Shown here one piece after another: positions 1-7,850 of a stretch of 7,850 nt of DNA. How positions within the stretch are numbered: the stretch's first letter is position 1; every line of letters starts with the position of its first letter. The stretch lies in IMG/VR virus record IMGVR_UViG_2690316241_000021, one strand, 5' to 3'. This stretch comes from a virus (taxonomy: Duplodnaviria; Heunggongvirae; Uroviricota; Caudoviricetes). Made by a program: the position numbers and the translations under genes. Below the pieces are notes generated by a model. The model was not told the DNA's origin and ran no database searches. It saw only the letters and a program-made list of their open reading frames with translations.

Positions 1-483
1 ATGACGAAGAAAAAAGCACATAAACCTGGTTCAGCGACCATCGCGCTTAACAAGCGCGCCCGTCACGAATACTTTATCGAAGAAGAGTTCGAAGCGGGAC
101 TTGCCCTGCAAGGCTGGGAGGTTAAATCCCTGCGCGCAGGAAAAGCCAATATCAGCGACAGCTACGTCCTTCTGCGTGACGGAGAGGCATTTCTGTTTGG
201 CGCTAACATCACGCCAATGGCCGTGGCCTCCACGCATGTGGTGTGCGATCCTACCCGTACCCGCAAGTTACTTCTCAACCAGCGCGAACTGGACTCATTG
301 TACGGTCGCGTCAATCGAGAAGGCTATACCGTAGTGGCGCTCTCCCTGTACTGGAAAAATGCCTGGTGCAAAGTGAAAATCGGCGTCGCCAAAGGTAAAA
401 AACAGCACGATAAACGTTCAGATATCAAAGAACGCGAATGGCAGGTGGATAAAGCACGTATCATGAAAAACGCCCACCGTTAA
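1..483 (+). CDS. smpB: SsrA-binding protein SmpB
   Basis: Complete 160-aa ORF from ATG at 1 to TAA at 481-483. The protein is recognised from memory as enterobacterial SmpB, and it sits directly upstream of ssrA as in Enterobacteriaceae. Confidence 0.95.
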
Positions 484-653
484 ACCTGCACTCCAATTAT
501 TGACCAGTTCCTCACCGCGCCTCCCTCTCCGGCGGCGCGAATCAACATCTTATTGGCTATCACATCCGACACAAATGTTGCCATCCCATTGCTTAATCGA
601 ATAAAAATCAGGCTACATGGGTGCTAAATCTTTAACGATAACGCCATTGAGGC

Positions 654-683
654 TGGTCATGGCGCTCATAAATCTGGTATACT
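654..683 (+). promoter_or_regulatory. Putative ssrA promoter (extended -10)
   Basis: TGgTATACT at 675-683 (extended -10 type) with a weak -35-like TGGTCA at 654-659, about 15 nt upstream of the mature tmRNA 5' end. Consistent with a short precursor leader. Motif reading only. Confidence 0.35.
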
Positions 684-697
684 TACCTTTACACATT

Positions 698-1060
698 GGG
701 GCTGATTCTGGATTCGACGGGATTTGCGAAACCCAAGGTGCATGCCGAGGGGCGGTTGGCCTCGTAAAAAGCCGCAAAAAATAGTCGCAAACGACGAAAA
801 CTACGCTTTAGCAGCTTAATAACCTGCTTAGAGCCCTCTCTCCCTAGCCTCCGCTCTTAGGACGGGGATCAAGAGAGGTCAAACCCAAAAGAGATCGCGT
901 GGAAGCCCTGCCTGGGGTTGAAGCGTTAAAACTTAATCAGGCTAGTTTGTTAGTGGCGTGTCCGTCCGCAGCTGGCAAGCGAATGTAAAGACTGACTAAG
1001 CATGTAGTACCGAGGATGTAGGAATTTCGGACGCGGGTTCAACTCCCGCCAGCTCCACCA
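698..1060 (+). ncRNA. ssrA: tmRNA (transfer-messenger RNA, 10Sa RNA)
   Basis: Begins GGGGCTGATTCTGGATTCGACGGG at 698 and ends GGTTCAACTCCCGCCAGCTCCACCA at 1060 (363 nt), matching E. coli tmRNA as I recall it. It contains the tag reading frame and a tRNA-like 3' end with CCA. Confidence 0.95.
787..819 (+). other. tmRNA proteolysis-tag reading frame (ANDENYALAA, then stop)
   Basis: GCAAACGACGAAAACTACGCTTTAGCAGCTTAA inside ssrA translates to A-N-D-E-N-Y-A-L-A-A followed by a stop, the canonical E. coli degradation tag. Confidence 0.85.
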
Positions 1061-1190
1061 ATCATGATTGGACGGTGTAAGGACAACACCAACAAAAACA
1101 GGAAGTTAGCAGTCTCAGCAGGACACCGACCAGACGGTGAGGAGACAAAAAAGGATACGCAAAGGAGCCGCGGCTCTCAAGTGTGAAAGA

Positions 1191-1216
1191 AGCCCGCAAA
1201 TTGCGGGCTTTTTTAT
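1191..1216 (+). terminator. Rho-independent terminator downstream of ssrA
   Basis: GC-rich hairpin AGCCCGC-aaatt-GCGGGCT (1191-1209) followed by the T-tract TTTTTTATT. A short palindrome GAGCCGCGGCTC lies just upstream (1166-1177). Confidence 0.7.
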
Positions 1217-1269
1217 TGATCAGTCAACAATAAACAGTAACCGAATGAGAATTTAATAAGGATATTCAT

Positions 1270-2301
1270 ATGGAAGCTACTGTGGATTCGATTGATTTTC
1301 TGATCCGTAGTGAAGATGATTTTCTAAACTTTCTGGAAGAAATGAAAGCCCGAGAGGGGCTTGATTCTAAAGAGTTTATTTTCCCTAACGTAAAGTTTGC
1401 AGGCTGGCCATCCTTAGACATAAATGTAAAAGGAGAGCGGTATCATTCATCAATTACATCAGCAATGTTGTTTGGTATGTCAATGCTCAACGAGGAGATA
1501 CAGCGGGCGTTTGCAACCATACGATACGGATCGCAGAATCTTCAACGCTTGACTAATGAAGACAAGCAACGACTTGATATAAATTTTAAAATTAGCGAAG
1601 GTTCTAGTGATGCGGAAGGCACCACTGACAAGATCATCAACGCAGTAACTGATTTTTTGCGAGATACTATGTCTGGACTGAACGGCTGGCAGAAAATGCT
1701 TGTTATAATCACAATGGTTGGCGCGGCCAGCACATGTGGTTATCACTACATTTCAGAAAATGCCGTAACAGAAAGACATGCAACTGATCGGCAGGTTGAA
1801 ATTGCAAAAACCACATCCGATGGCATAAACAAAGCCATAGAAGCAACATTAGATTATAAAATCTATGGGAAATCAGCGATTAGCGATAAAGTTACTAGTC
1901 ACGGACAAGCAGGTAAAAGTGCTTTAGTGAAGCAATTAGCTGCTGATCCTACTGTCGAAACCGTGACTTTAGGAAATGAGAAACTAACACGACAAGACCT
2001 AAATACCTACAACAGCCGACAATCTGTAGATAGAGAACGTAAAGAACGAACTGATATATTTTCCATCAAAGGTGTAACCAGAACAGGGCCAACAAATCAG
2101 GATATTAATATTAACGTTGTTAGGGTCTCTAATGACGAATGCTTCACAATCAAAGCTTCAGCTGATGTTATCACCCAAGATGAGTTGACAGCTATTGTTG
2201 ACGCTTTGTCAAACAACTCTCATATTAAAATCAGTTACTTAGAGGTAATTGAAAAGGGTGCTGTTTCTATAGGTCAGTTCAACACTATTGTTTCAGAATA
2301 A
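1270..2301 (+). CDS. Hypothetical protein (343 aa), AT-rich accessory gene
   Basis: Long uninterrupted ORF with an SD-like AAGGA 7 nt upstream of the ATG. By eye it is clearly more AT-rich than smpB (not computed). One internal hydrophobic stretch (WQKMLVIITMVGAASTCGYHYI) could be a membrane helix. I recognise no conserved motif. Confidence 0.6.
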   Translation: MEATVDSIDFLIRSEDDFLNFLEEMKAREGLDSKEFIFPNVKFAGWPSLDINVKGERYHSSITSAMLFGMSMLNEEIQRAFATIRYGSQNLQRLTNEDKQRLDINFKISEGSSDAEGTTDKIINAVTDFLRDTMSGLNGWQKMLVIITMVGAASTCGYHYISENAVTERHATDRQVEIAKTTSDGINKAIEATLDYKIYGKSAISDKVTSHGQAGKSALVKQLAADPTVETVTLGNEKLTRQDLNTYNSRQSVDRERKERTDIFSIKGVTRTGPTNQDININVVRVSNDECFTIKASADVITQDELTAIVDALSNNSHIKISYLEVIEKGAVSIGQFNTIVSE

Positions 2302-2352
2302 TCACTTAACCCCATTTATGTCGGTTGAGGTTATAAGTCACGGAGACCAGAT

Positions 2353-2697
2353 ATGTCCTTAAAGTATGCACATGAAAAATTTCATACTGCAGTACTTACT
2401 CTTGCGGGCCATGGAAGTATTCAAGAACGCTTGATTAATTCGTATGTTTTTAGCCTTGGGCATCTTAAAACAGCCGATGATATTCCAAATGCCTTACAAA
2501 GCAGGTTCGATGAATTATGTAAGGAACTGACTAAGTTTGATGCCACTGGCGATGAGGGGCGAGTTCAAGCAACAGTATCAAAACTTAACGATTTCGAGAT
2601 CAATAAACTGATCGAAGATATTGTCAGTCTTAACGATGATATTTGCATGAAATTGGCTCTGACGGATGAGACTTACCAAGACATACACCAAAGTTAA
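2353..2697 (+). CDS. Hypothetical protein (114 aa), probable operon partner of the upstream ORF
   Basis: ORF with SD GGAGA 6 nt upstream of the ATG, 51 nt after the stop of the 343-aa ORF, same strand, similarly AT-rich. Its last four codons and stop (I-H-Q-S-TAA, 2683-2697) lie inside the outer end of the left inverted repeat. No recognisable motif. Confidence 0.5.
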   Translation: MSLKYAHEKFHTAVLTLAGHGSIQERLINSYVFSLGHLKTADDIPNALQSRFDELCKELTKFDATGDEGRVQATVSKLNDFEINKLIEDIVSLNDDICMKLALTDETYQDIHQS

Positions 2698-2724
2698 TTG
2701 ATTAAATTCAAAAAGTTAACGTTC

Positions 2725-2756
2725 AACCAGCCAGTTTTTGGCTGGTTTATTGTCTT
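2725..2756. terminator. Hairpin terminator (left copy), probably bidirectional
   Basis: Stem AACCAGCCA-gtttt-TGGCTGGTT (2725-2747) followed by TTTATTGTCTT on the plus strand. This suits termination of the 343/114-aa operon. On the minus strand it follows the 70-aa ORF with a weaker T-rich tail. Confidence 0.5.
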
Positions 2757-2781
2757 ATAATATTCTTGCTCGAATGATGCA

Positions 2782-2994
2782 CTATTTATGATGTAATCCG
2801 GACATCAGTTCATGGACAAGATTATCTCTTTCATTGTGTTGCAACCGTAAATGCATAGCAAAAAGGTGAGCACTATCCTCATTCCTCTTCAAGCCATGCT
2901 GTTCAAGATACCCGAAAAAACGGCTTCTCTTATCCGCTATTTCCTGAGTCTGACGTGCAACATTTACCAAATTTTCTAGCGTTTTTCTTGGCAT
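2782..2994 (-). CDS. Hypothetical small protein (70 aa), left copy
   Basis: ORF with a strong SD (AGGAGG, 7-nt spacer) lying downstream of the invertase within the repeat arm and followed by the hairpin. Identical to the copy at 6580-6792. Function not recognised. Confidence 0.55.
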   Translation of the reverse strand: MPRKTLENLVNVARQTQEIADKRSRFFGYLEQHGLKRNEDSAHLFAMHLRLQHNERDNLVHELMSGLHHK

Positions 2995-3192
2995 ACTATT
3001 TCCTCCTGAAATTGTTGTAATTCACTAGGATATTCATTTTAATTTGTATCATTTAGTACCAAAACCGCTATCAATTAACAAAGCCATCGTTGTGGTTTAC
3101 CTTGCAGCCGTTTTTTGTCATTGACTCTATGTGAAAATAATGAATCATCATGAGATTGGCTCACACGTTCTTGAATTCGACGAGCTGTGTCT

Positions 3193-3747
3193 TTATTTAT
3201 CTCCTGCCGGAAACCTCTGATACAAAGTCGATACGCCAACATCATAGATAATCGCAACTTTCTGGCGCGGAACTCCTGATGCAATTAATCGTCCGGCTTG
3301 TGCCCATTGTTCTGGTGTAAGTTTGGGACGACGTCCACCAATTCGTCCCTGTGCGCGAGCAGCTTCCAGTCCAGCTTTTGTTCGTTCAACAATCAGTTCT
3401 CGTTCCATTTCAGCCAGGGCCCCCATCACATGAAAGAAAAAGCGCCCCATTGGGGTACTGGTATCAATTGAATCCGTCAGACTACGAAAGTTGATGCCTC
3501 GTTCGCGCAACTCCTCCACCAGCACGACAAGATGCCGCATACTGCGCCCCAGTCGGTCCAGTTTCCAGACCACCAGCGTATCGCCTGCCGATAATGTCCT
3601 GAGCAGTTTTTTCAGTCCCGGCCTTTCGGACTTTGTACCGCTTATCTTGTCTTCAAAAATCAGCTCGCATCCTGCACAGTTCAGCGCATTACGTTGTAGA
3701 TCTGTGTTCTGGTCATTTGTTGACACACGTACATAGCCAATAAGCAT
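3193..3747 (-). CDS. Serine DNA invertase, Hin/Gin/Cin/Pin family (left copy)
   Basis: The protein MLIGYVRVSTNDQNTDLQRNAL...VVWKLDRLGRSM...GRFFFHVMGALAEMERELIVERT...KVAIIYDVGVSTLYQRFPAGDK carries the catalytic-serine N-terminal motif of small serine recombinases and a Hin-like C-terminal HTH. The start is placed at the internal ATG (3747), which is preceded by SD AGGGAGA. The ORF track's upstream ATG at 3783 would add 12 residues. Confidence 0.9.
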   Translation of the reverse strand: MLIGYVRVSTNDQNTDLQRNALNCAGCELIFEDKISGTKSERPGLKKLLRTLSAGDTLVVWKLDRLGRSMRHLVVLVEELRERGINFRSLTDSIDTSTPMGRFFFHVMGALAEMERELIVERTKAGLEAARAQGRIGGRRPKLTPEQWAQAGRLIASGVPRQKVAIIYDVGVSTLYQRFPAGDK

Positions 3748-3773
3748 GGTAGATCTCCCTGACAAAAGCAGGA

Positions 3774-4286
3774 ATGATGCCATTTGCTCGTTATTTCTGC
3801 ATTTTCATAAACGTTGGTTTGGGAGAAGGTTCGGCATTACCCGTTGGTGTGCCTGTTCCGTGGCCTTCCGCCACTCCGCCAACGGGGTGGCTAAAATGTA
3901 ACGGAGCAGTATTTTCTTCTGAAAAGTACCCAAATCTGGCAAAGGCTTACCCAACATTAAAATTACCAGATTTACGCGGTGAATTTATTCGTGGCTGGGA
4001 TGATGGGCGCGGGATTGACTCTGGTCGTAACTTATTATCTGCACAGAATGATGCAATTCAGAATATTGTTGGTTCTTTTGGGCGTACCCAGCTTTTTAGA
4101 GACGTACTTAGTTCAGGGCCATTTAGTCAACATGGGCAAGTATTATCTACAGGTCTAAAGGAAGCCGCAATTATTGAGGGTTATGGCGCTTATAACTGGA
4201 CATTCGACGCATCTCGCTCAGTTCGCACAGCATCTGAAACCCGCTCCCGTAACATCGCCTTTAATTATATTGTGAGGGCTGCATGA
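3774..4286 (+). CDS. Tail-fibre variable C-terminal cassette Sv (receptor-binding domain); not fused to a constant region in this orientation
   Basis: The frame is open across site A. The translation contains VPVPWPSATPPTGW...YP.L...YP...PDLRG and ends ...NIAFNYIVRAA, matching the C-terminal region of lambda Stf / Mu S-type side tail fibres as I recall them. The ATG-ATG at 3774 is probably not the physiological start. The stop overlaps the tfa start (ATGA). Confidence 0.7.
   Translation: MMPFARYFCIFINVGLGEGSALPVGVPVPWPSATPPTGWLKCNGAVFSSEKYPNLAKAYPTLKLPDLRGEFIRGWDDGRGIDSGRNLLSAQNDAIQNIVGSFGRTQLFRDVLSSGPFSQHGQVLSTGLKEAAIIEGYGAYNWTFDASRSVRTASETRSRNIAFNYIVRAA
3802..3827. promoter_or_regulatory. 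hix/gix-like 26-bp crossover site A
   Basis: TTTTCATAAACG-TT-GGTTTGGGAGAA: two imperfect 12-bp inverted half-sites around a 2-bp core, resembling hixL and gix as recalled. It lies about 20 bp upstream of the invertase gene and at the inner edge of the repeat arm. Confidence 0.7.
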
Positions 4287-4888
4287 TAAGTAAAGCTGTA
4301 TTAAATAATGAACTCATCGCCACAAAGGCCGGAGACATTACCGTTTATAATTATGATGGTGAAACACGGGAATATATTTCCACATCAACTGAATATCTTG
4401 CTGTGGGTGTTGGTATCCCGGCATGTTCCTGTTTAGATGCTCCTGGCTCATATAAAGCTGGTTATGCAATTTGCCGTTCTGCAGATTTTAACTCATGGGA
4501 ATATGTGCCAGACCATCGCGGTGAAATCGTCTATAGCACCGAAACAGGAGAATCAAAAGAAATCACACTTCCGGGTGATTACCCTGAAAATACAACCACT
4601 ATCGCCCCGTTAACGTCATACGATAAATGGGATGGTGAGAAATGGGTGACCGATACTGAGGCACAGCATAACGCCGCAGTAGACGCGGCAGAAGTACGGC
4701 GCCAGTCACTGATTGATGCTGCTATGGCTTCCATTAGTCTGATTCAGCTGAAATTGCAGGCCGGGCGGAAGCTGACGCAGGCAGAAACAACCCGGCTTAA
4801 CGCTGTGCTGGATTACATTGACGCGGTGACTGCAACAGATACCAGCACCGCGCCGGATGTCATCTGGCCTGAACTACCGGAGGCGTAG
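4283..4888 (+). CDS. tfa: Tail-fibre assembly chaperone (Tfa / Mu U family)
   Basis: 201-aa ORF whose start overlaps the Sv stop. Its C-terminus ...DTSTAPDVIWPELPEA and central ...W.YV.DHRG..VY... match the lambda Tfa family from memory. Confidence 0.85.
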   Translation: MISKAVLNNELIATKAGDITVYNYDGETREYISTSTEYLAVGVGIPACSCLDAPGSYKAGYAICRSADFNSWEYVPDHRGEIVYSTETGESKEITLPGDYPENTTTIAPLTSYDKWDGEKWVTDTEAQHNAAVDAAEVRRQSLIDAAMASISLIQLKLQAGRKLTQAETTRLNAVLDYIDAVTATDTSTAPDVIWPELPEA

Positions 4889-5303
4889 GCCATTCAATAT
4901 CTGGAGCACTGGAGGTATCAACCAGTTCCAGTGCGTCCAGATAATCCAGCCATAAATTATATTGTTCCAGCTCGTAACCTTTCAGACGACCAATAGCAGC
5001 TTTGCCAGGCCACTGATGGGTATTGATGTAGGTATTGACTTCTGAAACCAAAGATATCTTTTTCATTTCAGCCGCCAGCATCTCATCCTCTTTTGAAGGC
5101 GGCGGGGAATTAATCCATATTGGCCGTCCTGAACTGTCAGCGCCAATTTCTTTCCCTTCTGGATGCAGCCCAAGAAATTGCTCATATGTTTCTCTGGTAA
5201 TTTCAATAACATCATCAGGAAGCGTTCCCGCATCCTCATATTCTGGAAACAATTCTTGCAGATAAAAACTTTTACTTGCGGGTGAAAAGAATACTGAGTT
5301 CAT
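4860..5303 (-). CDS. tfa: Alternative tail-fibre assembly chaperone (Tfa' / Mu U' analogue)
   Basis: 147-aa ORF convergent with the other tfa, with 29 nt of 3' overlap. Its C-terminus ...VDTSSAPDIEWPTPPVVQAR carries the Tfa motif. It lies directly downstream of the second variable cassette. Confidence 0.8.
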   Translation of the reverse strand: MNSVFFSPASKSFYLQELFPEYEDAGTLPDDVIEITRETYEQFLGLHPEGKEIGADSSGRPIWINSPPPSKEDEMLAAEMKKISLVSEVNTYINTHQWPGKAAIGRLKGYELEQYNLWLDYLDALELVDTSSAPDIEWPTPPVVQAR

Positions 5304-5305
5304 TC

Positions 5306-5800
5306 TTACCGTCCAATGATTAACGCTGAGACGCTGGTATCTGAAGGAAAGGCTGCATTCAGTGGTTTGTCGACTTTGAACACAATCGTATTATTCCCCC
5401 TGACAGCGGCAAAAGAACAAACCGCCGTCGCGTATGAACCTGTAATATTACTGGATACACCACCATAAGCTGTTGTTGATACCAGAGGGATAACGCCCAG
5501 CACCTTATTAGGAAATACAAAGGGCAATGTGGCTGTGGCAATATAAGACTTATTAGAACCTGTAATGGCATAAGCATTATCAGTCATTCCATTCATCGCC
5601 ACTGGACCGCTTATACTTACAGTAACCATCTGAATGATTAGCCCGTCAGGTTGACGAATCACAAAATTTCCATTGCCACCAGTAACCGTCCAGAAAGACA
5701 TATCAGGGATTTGGTTTTCCCCGTTGCCCACATTTCGTTTTGCCGCTTCTCCCAAACCAACGTTTATGAAAATGCAGAAATAACGAGCAAATGGCATCAT
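5306..5800 (-). CDS. Alternative tail-fibre variable C-terminal cassette Sv'
   Basis: The frame is open across site B and shares the repeat-encoded prefix ...INVGLGE with Sv before diverging into a different sequence. Assigned by its mirror position and its pairing with Tfa'; the domain itself is not recognised by me. Confidence 0.6.
   Translation of the reverse strand: MMPFARYFCIFINVGLGEAAKRNVGNGENQIPDMSFWTVTGGNGNFVIRQPDGLIIQMVTVSISGPVAMNGMTDNAYAITGSNKSYIATATLPFVFPNKVLGVIPLVSTTAYGGVSSNITGSYATAVCSFAAVRGNNTIVFKVDKPLNAAFPSDTSVSALIIGR
5747..5772. promoter_or_regulatory. hix/gix-like 26-bp crossover site B
   Basis: TTCTCCCAAACC-AA-CGTTTATGAAAA, the exact reverse complement of site A, about 20 bp upstream of the right invertase copy. 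Confidence 0.7.
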
Positions 5801-5826
5801 TCCTGCTTTTGTCAGGGAGATCTACC

Positions 5827-6381
5827 ATGCTTATTGGCTATGTACGTGTGTCAACAAATGACCAGAACACAGATCTACAACGTAATGCGCTGAACTGTGC
5901 AGGATGCGAGCTGATTTTTGAAGACAAGATAAGCGGTACAAAGTCCGAAAGGCCGGGACTGAAAAAACTGCTCAGGACATTATCGGCAGGCGATACGCTG
6001 GTGGTCTGGAAACTGGACCGACTGGGGCGCAGTATGCGGCATCTTGTCGTGCTGGTGGAGGAGTTGCGCGAACGAGGCATCAACTTTCGTAGTCTGACGG
6101 ATTCAATTGATACCAGTACCCCAATGGGGCGCTTTTTCTTTCATGTGATGGGGGCCCTGGCTGAAATGGAACGAGAACTGATTGTTGAACGAACAAAAGC
6201 TGGACTGGAAGCTGCTCGCGCACAGGGACGAATTGGTGGACGTCGTCCCAAACTTACACCAGAACAATGGGCACAAGCCGGACGATTAATTGCATCAGGA
6301 GTTCCGCGCCAGAAAGTTGCGATTATCTATGATGTTGGCGTATCGACTTTGTATCAGAGGTTTCCGGCAGGAGATAAATAA
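5827..6381 (+). CDS. Serine DNA invertase, Hin/Gin/Cin/Pin family (right copy)
   Basis: Identical protein to the left copy. SD AGGGAGA lies 6 nt upstream of the ATG at 5827. It diverges outward from crossover site B. Confidence 0.9.
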   Translation: MLIGYVRVSTNDQNTDLQRNALNCAGCELIFEDKISGTKSERPGLKKLLRTLSAGDTLVVWKLDRLGRSMRHLVVLVEELRERGINFRSLTDSIDTSTPMGRFFFHVMGALAEMERELIVERTKAGLEAARAQGRIGGRRPKLTPEQWAQAGRLIASGVPRQKVAIIYDVGVSTLYQRFPAGDK

Positions 6382-6579
6382 AGACACAGCTCGTCGAATT
6401 CAAGAACGTGTGAGCCAATCTCATGATGATTCATTATTTTCACATAGAGTCAATGACAAAAAACGGCTGCAAGGTAAACCACAACGATGGCTTTGTTAAT
6501 TGATAGCGGTTTTGGTACTAAATGATACAAATTAAAATGAATATCCTAGTGAATTACAACAATTTCAGGAGGAAATAGT

Positions 6580-6792
6580 ATGCCAAGAAAAACGCTAGAA
6601 AATTTGGTAAATGTTGCACGTCAGACTCAGGAAATAGCGGATAAGAGAAGCCGTTTTTTCGGGTATCTTGAACAGCATGGCTTGAAGAGGAATGAGGATA
6701 GTGCTCACCTTTTTGCTATGCATTTACGGTTGCAACACAATGAAAGAGATAATCTTGTCCATGAACTGATGTCCGGATTACATCATAAATAG
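6580..6792 (+). CDS. Hypothetical small protein (70 aa), right copy
   Basis: SD AGGAGG at 6567-6572 with a 7-nt spacer, then MPRKTLENLVNVARQTQEIADKRSRFFGYLEQHGLKRNEDSAHLFAMHLRLQHNERDNLVHELMSGLHHK. Followed by the hairpin at 6827-6849. Confidence 0.55.
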   Translation: MPRKTLENLVNVARQTQEIADKRSRFFGYLEQHGLKRNEDSAHLFAMHLRLQHNERDNLVHELMSGLHHK

Positions 6793-6818
6793 TGCATCAT
6801 TCGAGCAAGAATATTATA

Positions 6819-6849
6819 AGACAATAAACCAGCCAAAAACTGGCTGGTT
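6819..6849. terminator. Hairpin terminator (right copy), probably bidirectional
   Basis: AACCAGCCA-aaaac-TGGCTGGTT at 6827-6849. On the minus strand it is followed by TTTATTGTCTT, so it would stop transcripts coming from the tail-fibre constant region. Confidence 0.5.
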
Positions 6850-6872
6850 GAACGTTAACTTTTTGAATTTAA

Positions 6873-7196
6873 TCAATTAACTTTGGTGTATACTTCTCCC
6901 AAACCAAGGTTTTCGAGAGCCGTTTTCACCGTGCCATCAGATTTGATATCGCCAAACGGATTCTTGCGGCTTAACAGCAGCGCACGAAGCGCGGTAAGCA
7001 GCTGGTCATGCCGCCCCTTCTCCAGGCTGGCACCGGATGCCTCCACCACGCTGCAGAGTTCTTCCTGCAACATGTCAAAGTAGTCATCATCCAGATCGGT
7101 GGCAGGTGTGCCGGTCTGGGGGTTACCACGGGTAAAACCGTTCTTACCCGCGCCGAACTTATCCTTCTGCGCGGTTTTCGTGTCTATACGATGCAT
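6873..7196 (-). CDS. Tail-fibre N-terminal constant region (Sc analogue), ending in a repeat-encoded stub
   Basis: 107-aa ORF starting 3 nt after the stop of the upstream baseplate gene. Its 3' end runs through crossover site C and then reads only V-Y-T-K-V-N-stop from the repeat's outer end. Assigned from position and the in-frame crossover site, not from recognised homology. Confidence 0.55.
6894..6919. promoter_or_regulatory. hix/gix-like 26-bp crossover site C, inside the 3' end of the tail-fibre constant region
   Basis: TTCTCCCAAACC-AA-GGTTTTCGAGAG. Its first 14 nt are identical to site B and it is a near-palindrome of the hixL type. It lies 3 bp outside the repeat arm. On the minus strand it encodes ...ENLGLGE, in the same frame relative to the core as the ...NVGLGE encoded at sites A and B. 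Confidence 0.65.
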
Positions 7197-7199
7197 GGA

Positions 7200-7850
<651 letters not shown>

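Follow-up and report, generated by a model that had tools for sequence, protein, structure and literature searches.

An apparent perfect inverted duplication of a Pin invertase module beside ssrA is very probably an assembly artefact

The stretch of DNA analyzed here (7850 nucleotides, hereafter the window) contains a perfect inverted repeat with two invertase genes, which very probably is not a feature of the genome. We consider it highly likely that the apparent duplication is an assembly artefact, in which the two orientations of an ordinary e14-type Pin switch were stitched together across a single N. The window equals the public contig save for this N, both sides of the N tile onto ordinary isomers of the locus and the relatives are single-copy. 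The genuine feature here, a Pin switch of the e14 type, belongs to a prophage remnant adjoining ssrA and was probably inverting in the sequenced culture.

The inverted repeat and the base that joins it to the locus

The first-pass annotation had described a perfect inverted duplication of about 1146 bp carrying two intact invertase genes, which is exact for the letters of the window. Self-comparison of the window delimits two inverted arms (2683–3828 and 5746–6891) of 1146 nt each that are 100% complementary and lie 1917 nt apart, a repeat length far above chance expectation. Direct sequence comparison of both arms upheld their identity and bore out that no mismatch separates them. Each arm consists of a crossover site, a 184-aa invertase ORF, a 198-bp spacer, a 70-aa ORF and a hairpin with a 10-bp stem. 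A third crossover site, located within the 3′ end of the constant fibre ORF, adjoins the right arm (Table 1) and had been overlooked, as had the identity of the base between arm and site in the public record. The repeat is present in the text of the window, yet it is no evidence of a duplication in the organism.

Table 1. Features of the window. Strand is given relative to the window.
Feature	Position	Strand	Evidence or remark
smpB, chromosomal flank	1–483	+	ORF; smpB annotated at the equivalent place in L001 and L003
ssrA (tmRNA)	698–1060	+	ARAGORN; Rfam RF00023, 295.8 bits
343-aa ORF	1270–2301	+	matches phrog_6191, a PHROG without assigned function
114-aa ORF	2353–2697	+	
Genuine invertase module	2683–3828	-	single copy with the same flank in 46 complete genomes
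Hairpin of genuine module	2725–2747		
70-aa ORF of genuine module	2782–2994	-	
pin, 184-aa invertase, genuine copy	3193–3747	-	Resolvase and HTH_7 domains
Invertase-proximal crossover site C	3802–3827		26 bp; core TT at 3814–3815
Invertible segment	3829–5745		both orientations among complete genomes
Fibre C-terminus cassette Sv (Collar domain)	to 4286	+	Pfam
Tail-fibre assembly gene, Sv side of segment	4283–4888	+	Pfam
Tail-fibre assembly gene, Sv′ side of segment	4860–5303	-	Pfam
Cassette Sv′ (gp53-like)	5306–5745	-	Pfam
Second module, very probably artefactual	5746–6891	+	reverse complement of 2683–3828; ends at contig end
Right-arm crossover site B	5747–5772		26 bp
pin, 184 aa, very probably artefactual copy	5827–6381	+	Resolvase and HTH_7 domains
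Scaffold join	6892		N in CYBL01000042.1, A in window
Constant 5′ part of tail-fibre gene	6893–7196	-	99% identical to StfP residues 1–101
Constant-side crossover site A	6894–6919		26 bp; core at 6906–6907; ends constant fibre part
ymfQ, Mu Gp48-like baseplate gene	7200–7772	-	Pfam PF10076; 98% identical to K-12 YmfQ
IS3-family element edge	7764–7850	+	IS3-family transposase annotated there in L001

Positions 1–7850 correspond to 3719–11568 of contig CYBL01000042.1 in the draft assembly GCA_001284025.1 (locus L178) with one mismatch in 7850 bases. This sole mismatch is position 6892, an A in the window and an N in the record, where it is the only N of the locus. Nothing but base 6892 connects the second module to the remaining locus, so this junction was never sequenced and represents a scaffold join. 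The outer junction of the duplication hence lacks support, being a single N in the source record and absent from all collections searched, i.e. 5,426 complete E. coli genomes, the GTDB species representatives, IMG/VR and the JGI metagenomes. Searches with the junction-spanning 107-aa protein gave no match either, probably because the N codon of the record is an undetermined residue; the corresponding ORF (6873–7196, minus strand) runs through the N and does not encode a real product.

To the right of the N lies a piece of 958 nt (6893–7850) whose first base is exactly the last one common to both orientation alleles (...GGGAGAAG), the point at which the two orientations part; the piece runs on into an IS3-family element. 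After ...GGGAGAAG, every natural cassette continues with G or C, and a branch point at the N is that expected of a single-copy locus with mixed orientation. Were the junction real, reads would extend the 958-nt piece into the module; judging from the N and the contig end positions, junction-spanning reads appear to be absent. Homology to IS-free loci stops at 7763 and the public contig ends 2 nt past the window; the run into the IS (87–91 nt) was uninformative as to the k-mer size of the assembler.

Single-invertase relatives and sister assemblies

The remainder of the window tiles onto loci with one invertase gene. Positions 1–5765 match the ordinary single-invertase locus L003 with 4 mismatches, 3809–6891 align in reverse complement to L001 (4584–7666), a single-copy locus in the flipped orientation, at 99.9% and 6893–7850 match both loci at 100%. 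In silico removal of 1147 nt leaves a sequence with 2 differences from L001 over 6703 positions, and the window nests within the diversity of single-copy loci (2 SNPs from L001 versus 3 from L003). The segment of L001 is oriented opposite to that of L002 and L003 in otherwise near-identical sequence, so both orientations are observed, and the window itself holds both the module–Sv and the module–Sv′ adjacency. Counting of the module in related genomes, as the first-pass annotation had proposed, revealed one copy throughout: its specific 510 nt occur once in each of 46 complete E. coli genomes and once in each of 10 distinct neighbourhoods. The earlier argument that perfect identity implies recency is weak, given that the module is 99.4–100% identical across all 46 carrier genomes. 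Homology continues unbroken through 2683 in 16 of 16 module-bearing loci (2300–3300 compared), which leaves no natural boundary at the outer breakpoint and led us to dismiss a mosaic boundary at this position. A point against the artefact reading is that the second copy stops after exactly 1146 nt at this position, which has no recognisable feature.

We further considered whether a real second pin module might lie inverted between the constant fibre part and the segment, as a private and very recent rearrangement. Such a copy could have arisen, for example, by a 1147-bp tandem duplication and a later Pin flip between sites A and C. The layout is consistent with Pin chemistry in that sites A and B share their core and are repeated in direct orientation, an A-to-B deletion restores the ordinary locus exactly and the constant part would become joined to Sv by A × C inversion. 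However, the junction is an N found in no collection searched, the right-hand piece stops at the Sv/Sv′ branch point and does not continue into the module, all relatives are single-copy, and the junction possesses neither microhomology nor a quasi-site above chance. We thus regard a real copy of this kind as very unlikely. Several specific origins were tried and rejected. The candidate quasi-site for a Pin-mediated event (2685–2696) has 3 mismatches, which is chance level (12 such matches found, 9.8 expected), and in an analysis by hand no conservative exchange at a 2-bp core reproduces the junction. For a tandem duplication or template switch at microhomology, the only nearby AAG predicts ...GAGAAG-AC-ATACACC, whereas ...GAGAAG-T-ATACACC is observed. 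Replication fork stalling at a Pin-bound site is a model made unnecessary by the N. An excised circle seemed to be offered by the 2,637-bp 'plasmid' NZ_CP148395.1, which equals window positions 1177–3813; this record ends at those limits and is an unplaced contig breaking at the crossover site, not a circle junction.

The sister contigs, i.e. the others whose tail-fibre assembly protein is the same variant (L at residue 96), were compared as well. The locus is normal in L177, L182 and L184–L186. L179 is a mirror-image artefact composed of the constant-part contig, the segment and the inverted constant-part contig with a single N, while L180 and L181 are chimeras whose joins carry one or eleven Ns. 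One sister chimera creates an ORF fusing Resolvase and Caudo_TAP, and in the sister assemblies one N again directly follows ...GGGAGAAG. Two further places resemble L178; if they are independent isolates sharing its layout, this could mean either a reproducible artefact or, in favor of a real copy, a real variant. Against a real copy, the sister assemblies show mutually inconsistent N-marked chimeras besides the mirror-image artefact.

It has previously been described that tail-fibre segments of mixed orientation give rise to spurious contigs, the integration of which results in 'artefactual duplications in phage regions' (PMC4134206). This EC958 case resembles ours in that a mixed-orientation culture led to a region represented twice in opposite orientations; it differs in that long reads yielded separate contigs there, whereas here a short-read draft holds one scaffold with a single N. 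SSPACE and GapFiller are greedy programs capable of false joins, and in one published pipeline they are fed only reads that do not map as proper pairs (PMC5320598). Such a selection would enrich reads of the minority orientation, and a workflow of this kind may lie behind GCA_001284025.1.

Relation to the e14 Pin switch and other inversion systems

The assignment to a Hin-family inversion system was correct in the first-pass annotation, which had recognized the invertase, the crossover sites and the fibre cassettes; domain searches and comparison with e14 confirm all three. The invertase is a serine recombinase with a C-terminal HTH (PF00239, E = 1.5e-51; PF02796, E = 3.6e-13), its N-terminus reads MLIGYVRVSTNDQ and Ser10 occupies the conserved position. 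The motif TTCTCCCAAACCAAsGTTT occurs 3 times in the window against 0 expected, and in the real locus the segment is bounded by two 26-bp sites, C and A, in inverted orientation.

Against the cryptic prophage e14 of E. coli (pinE, stfP, tfaP, tfaE, stfE), protein identity amounts to 97.8% for Pin (K-12 PinE), 99% for the constant part (StfP residues 1–101) and 98% for YmfQ (K-12 YmfQ). Both site types are letter-identical (GGCTCTCGAAAACC-TT-GGTTTGGGAGAA and CATTTTCATAAACG-TT-GGTTTGGGAGAA) and the gene order, ymfQ, constant fibre part, cassettes with assembly genes and pin, is shared. On the level of sequence, the recombinase, constant part, baseplate neighbour and sites qualify as orthologs of the e14 Pin/P-segment system. 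The loci differ in that the present one lies beside ssrA and e14 at icd, that the Collar cassette is only 60% identical to StfE while the gp53-like cassette has no detectable identity, that pin is followed by the 70-aa ORF and genes without assigned function where e14 has mcrA, and that the remnant, which sits downstream of ssrA, is truncated by the IS3-family element. The second pin copy does not count among the true differences. In the relatives L001–L003 the constant fibre part continues into a cassette, so that proteins of 247 or 253 aa result; taken alone, the constant part aligns only to the first ~100 positions of fibre profiles of 322–1018 positions. The 343-aa and 114-aa ORFs accompany the pin module in 16 of 16 fetched module-bearing loci and have no Pfam or PADLOC match. 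For the 114-aa and 70-aa ORFs, Pfam, PHROGs and PADLOC yield no function, and no further context for the 70-aa module emerged from the phage and plasmid collections.

Gin/G of Mu, Cin/C of P1 and Hin/H of Salmonella likewise employ a small serine recombinase with a Resolvase domain and C-terminal HTH, inverted 26-bp sites with two 12-bp half-sites around a 2-bp core, and alternative fibre C-termini swapped by inversion; they carry one invertase gene, the same as the real locus here. In Hin, Gin, Cin and Pin systems, a Fis-bound enhancer with two Fis sites ~48 bp apart lies in the 5′ part of the invertase gene. A scan of pin for such sites turned up nothing better than two weak Fis-like matches, which agree at 8 of 11 defined positions. 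They lie 47 bp apart, at +131 and +178, and the former but not the latter has an equivalent in K-12 pinE. A crossover-site consensus is quoted in PMC4134206.

Natural loci with two pin genes do exist. In at least 18 complete E. coli genomes, a cassette segment has pinE on either side, as in the defence islands exemplified by FORC_031 (NZ_CP013190.1), where divergent Pin genes flank a segment of ~1.9 kb and both flanking sites have the invertase-proximal half-site. These fully sequenced loci lend some plausibility to a real second copy, and also to the idea that a two-invertase layout is old and conserved, its arms homogenised by gene conversion and the one-invertase loci derived by A–B deletion. 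Yet their pin copies are diverged (80–94% mutual identity; 94% in L128, ~80% in L119 and L140), the flanks are unrelated, with a GIY-YIG protein on one side and Avs2 on the other, and both the constant fibre part and a long perfect repeat are missing. Together with the position of the window inside single-copy diversity and the N at its junction, this renders an ancient layout extremely improbable.

Origin of the apparent duplication and its meaning

We propose that the genome contains an ordinary e14-type Pin switch in a prophage remnant beside ssrA, with one invertase module, one constant fibre 5′ part and one 1.9-kb invertible segment that holds two fibre C-terminus cassettes and their assembly genes. 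The sequenced culture was probably a mix of both segment orientations. During short-read assembly, scaffolding or gap filling (the program and step are our surmise), the far side of the segment may have been left along the flipped allele (Sv′–site–pin), whereby the module would have been written again in reverse complement for 1146 nt. The 958-nt constant-part contig would then have been placed by read-pair scaffolding, leaving a one-N gap unclosed, and preparation of the window presumably turned this N into an A, such that the structure looked like a fully sequenced perfect duplication. This reading agrees with the assembly artefact named as an alternative in the first-pass annotation, which the N join, the tiling onto isomers and the single-copy relatives favor. 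The main reading given there, a very recent duplication or gene conversion with RecA-dependent flipping, is not supported, as the second copy hangs on a single-N join and the rest tiles onto isomers.

Should the N instead be one uncalled base hiding a real junction, which we judge highly unlikely, the locus would be a three-site e14-type switch drawn in an isomer that uncouples the constant part. In this isomer the constant fibre part would be truncated, the cassettes would be expressed only as short leader–cassette proteins resembling StfE/StfE2 and inversion of the central segment would be silent, while the inverted orientation would protect the copies against RecA-mediated loss.

On the artefact reading, the locus that really exists adds a further example of the well-known e14-type Pin tail-fibre switch. 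The finding carries little biological weight and chiefly calls for care when raw sequence is scanned: draft assemblies of actively inverting cultures can hold hairpin-like chimeras that mimic perfect inverted duplications, and replacement of an N by a real base during sequence preparation removes the only telltale mark. The artefact at the same time provides indirect evidence of inversion by the switch in the culture that was sequenced.

Architecture of the inverted arms and of the Pin switch

The first-pass annotation had described a perfect inverted repeat of about 1146 bp, and a repeat search followed by a repeated direct comparison confirmed that the two arms, as written in the window, extend over 1146 nt, are 100% complementary and enclose a gap of 1917 nt. 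Each arm contains all elements ascribed to it (crossover site, invertase gene, spacer, 70-aa ORF and hairpin), and both invertase genes point outward from the central segment as proposed. A third crossover site, which had been overlooked, is located one base past the right arm within the 3′ end of a 107-aa ORF.

Features of the window in their order along the DNA
Feature	Coordinates	Strand	Description
smpB	1-483
ssrA	698-1060
Two ORFs			343 aa and 114 aa, function unknown; between ssrA and left module
Left invertase module	2683-3828		after the 343-aa and 114-aa ORFs
Invertase, each arm			184-aa ORF; Resolvase and HTH_7 domains
Spacer, each arm			198 bp
Further ORF, each arm			70 aa
Hairpin, each arm			10-bp stem
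Leader-cassette ORF	3774-4286	+	starts in leader MMPFARYFCIFINVGLGE, beside left invertase copy
Central segment	3829-5745		1.9 kb; two convergent pairs of fibre C-terminus cassette and tail-fibre assembly gene (Collar, Caudo_TAP, Caudo_TAP, gp53-like)
Leader-cassette ORF	5306-5800	-	starts in leader MMPFARYFCIFINVGLGE, beside right invertase copy
Right module	5746-6891		between central segment and constant fibre part
Third crossover site	6894-6919
Tail-fibre gene, 5′ constant part		-	fibre profiles are matched over their first ~100 positions only
ymfQ			Mu Gp48-like; beyond constant fibre part
IS3-family element			edge only, at the far end

By sequence, the switch is an orthologue of the Pin/P-segment switch that prophage e14 carries. 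Its Pin shares 97.8% identity with PinE of K-12, the constant fibre part is 99% identical to residues 1–101 of StfP and YmfQ 98% identical to its K-12 counterpart, and both types of crossover site match those of e14 exactly. Membership in the e14 Pin system was tested on recombinase, sites, neighbours and inversion, and all four agreed with it. A scan for a Fis enhancer gave weak Fis-like matches (8 of 11 defined positions) at +131 and +178 of the invertase gene, 47 bp apart, of which the first but not the second has an equivalent in K-12 pinE. The genuine switch comprises a single Pin invertase and two inverted 26-bp sites, one within the constant fibre gene, one beside pin. Pin flips the 1.9-kb segment and thereby fuses the constant part to either the Collar-type (Sv) or the gp53-like (Sv′) C-terminus, as the two isomers in relatives show. 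Each C-terminus cassette is followed by its own assembly gene, and the pin-adjacent cassette has a short leader next to the invertase (MMPFARYFCIFINVGLGE) from which it is read, the same arrangement as in K-12 stfE. The leader-cassette inversion product of e14, StfE2, has been reported to block adsorption of phage T2 (PMC12529663).

The 343-aa (matching phrog_6191), 114-aa and 70-aa ORFs (window 1270–2994) are found with this pin allele in all fetched loci that contain the module, and none of them had a match in Pfam or PADLOC. The context past these ORFs varies between loci, being ssrA, a P4-like element or an integrase island.

Copy number of the module and the junction at 6892

In complete E. 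coli chromosomes, the ssrA-linked locus carries one module, and the segment is found both ways round (locus L001 versus L002 and L003). The window minus exactly 1147 nt corresponds to L003; with these 1147 nt removed in silico, 2 of the 6703 positions differ from L001 and 3 from L003. The module-specific 510 nt are present in 46 of 5,426 complete genomes, once in each (99.4–100% identity), and 10 distinct neighbourhoods from an exact-protein index likewise hold one copy each. An old, conserved two-invertase architecture has a negligible probability.

Two non-synonymous differences, exactly 400 nt apart, distinguish the window from its four closest complete-genome relatives: A instead of E at Sv residue 132 (position 4168) and L instead of V at assembly-protein residue 96 (position 4568). 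An exact look-up of the latter private variant identified contig CYBL01000042.1 of GCA_001284025.1 (L178), which shows the two-module gene order. The window equals positions 3719–11568 of L178 with one mismatch, an 'A' at 6892 that is 'N' in the record and the only N in this locus; the contig ends 2 nt past the window end. Preparation of the window seems to swap N for a real base, so that scaffold gaps are no longer visible to the reader.

Since 6892 is N in the public record, the junction has never been sequenced. The duplication lacks the sequenced junction that is basic to a genuine one and is very probably not a real feature. The sole adjacency peculiar to the window, ...GGGAGAAG-T-ATACACC... 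(minus strand, 6885–6900), was not found in complete E. coli genomes, GTDB representatives, IMG/VR or JGI metagenomes, and neither useful microhomology nor a quasi-site above chance was detected at it. No natural boundary lies at its outer side (2683); its inner side is the exact point where all natural cassettes begin to diverge, which would be a branch point in an assembly graph from a mixed-orientation culture. At the junction, scaffolding joined a contig that ends in a reverse-complement module copy to a 958-nt contig limited by the Sv/Sv′ divergence point and the IS. Window 1–5765 is of the L003 type and 3809–6891, once reverse-complemented, of the L001 type, so that all sequence left of the N tiles onto two ordinary isomers and no real second copy is required. 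A real duplication private to the strain is very unlikely, as its junction base is the N and the right-hand contig halts at the branch point rather than continuing into the module, which argues against a real junction. The N and the tiling instead support an assembler artefact, which the first-pass annotation had named as an alternative, and the apparent second module is very probably of this kind.

Other assemblies broken at the locus

Among other contigs encoding the same tail-fibre assembly protein variant, the locus is normal in five (L177, L182 and L184–L186). GCA_001284985.1 (L179) contains a mirror-image artefact, in which the constant-part contig, the segment and the inverted constant-part contig are followed by a single N. 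GCA_001286265.2 (L180) and GCA_001284765.1 (L181) are chimeras with joins marked by one or eleven Ns; among these, one N stands directly after ...GGGAGAAG and one chimera yields a Resolvase+Caudo_TAP fusion ORF. For the EC958 genome, invertible tail-fibre regions were described as giving spurious alternative-allele contigs, together with a warning of artefactual duplications (PMC4134206). A widely used short-read pipeline employs SSPACE for scaffolding and GapFiller for gaps, both called greedy and liable to make false joins, and supplies them only with reads not mapping as proper pairs (PMC5320598). Such a selection would favour the minority orientation, and we infer that GCA_001284025.1 was made by a workflow of this type.

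The 2,637-bp record NZ_CP148395.1 (L004), annotated in RefSeq as circular plasmid pZ1323HEC0010-5, equals window 1177–3813 with the 343-aa, 114-aa and 70-aa ORFs and pinE. The record stops at the island edge and at the crossover-site core; rather than a plasmid, it almost certainly is an unplaced chromosomal contig. In CP123010.1 (L011, about 5885–7802), the site next to pin adjoins the fbaA-pgk region, and in MJIO01000050.1 (L183, 7171–8004) a cassette is fused to nrdI, yielding an ORF that combines the Flavodoxin_NdrI and Collar domains. Both layouts may stem from large rearrangements made by Pin at secondary sites, or from further misassembly.

Natural loci with two pin genes

Trabulsiella odontotermitis (L027, NZ_JNGH01000101.1, about 1800–7550) has two diverged pin genes on either side of a stretch of about 4.6 kb that contains numerous perfect repeats of 56–82 nt and a 952-nt inverted repeat of 85% identity; the arrangement resembles a Min-like, multi-site inversion cluster served by two invertases. 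Two different pinE genes around an orphan cassette segment of about 1.9 kb are present in at least 18 complete E. coli chromosomes (e.g. NZ_CP013190.1, L174, 7140–10093; also L175, L128, L119 and L140). These natural loci are unrelated to the artefact in the window. Their paired pinE genes are 80–94% identical to each other and divergently transcribed, both sites contain the invertase-proximal half-site, and the constant fibre part is absent. With this arrangement, short leader-cassette proteins would be the only products of either cassette, in both orientations. The loci lie within a defence island, with a GIY-YIG protein on one side and Avs2 on the other, and they may merit separate study.
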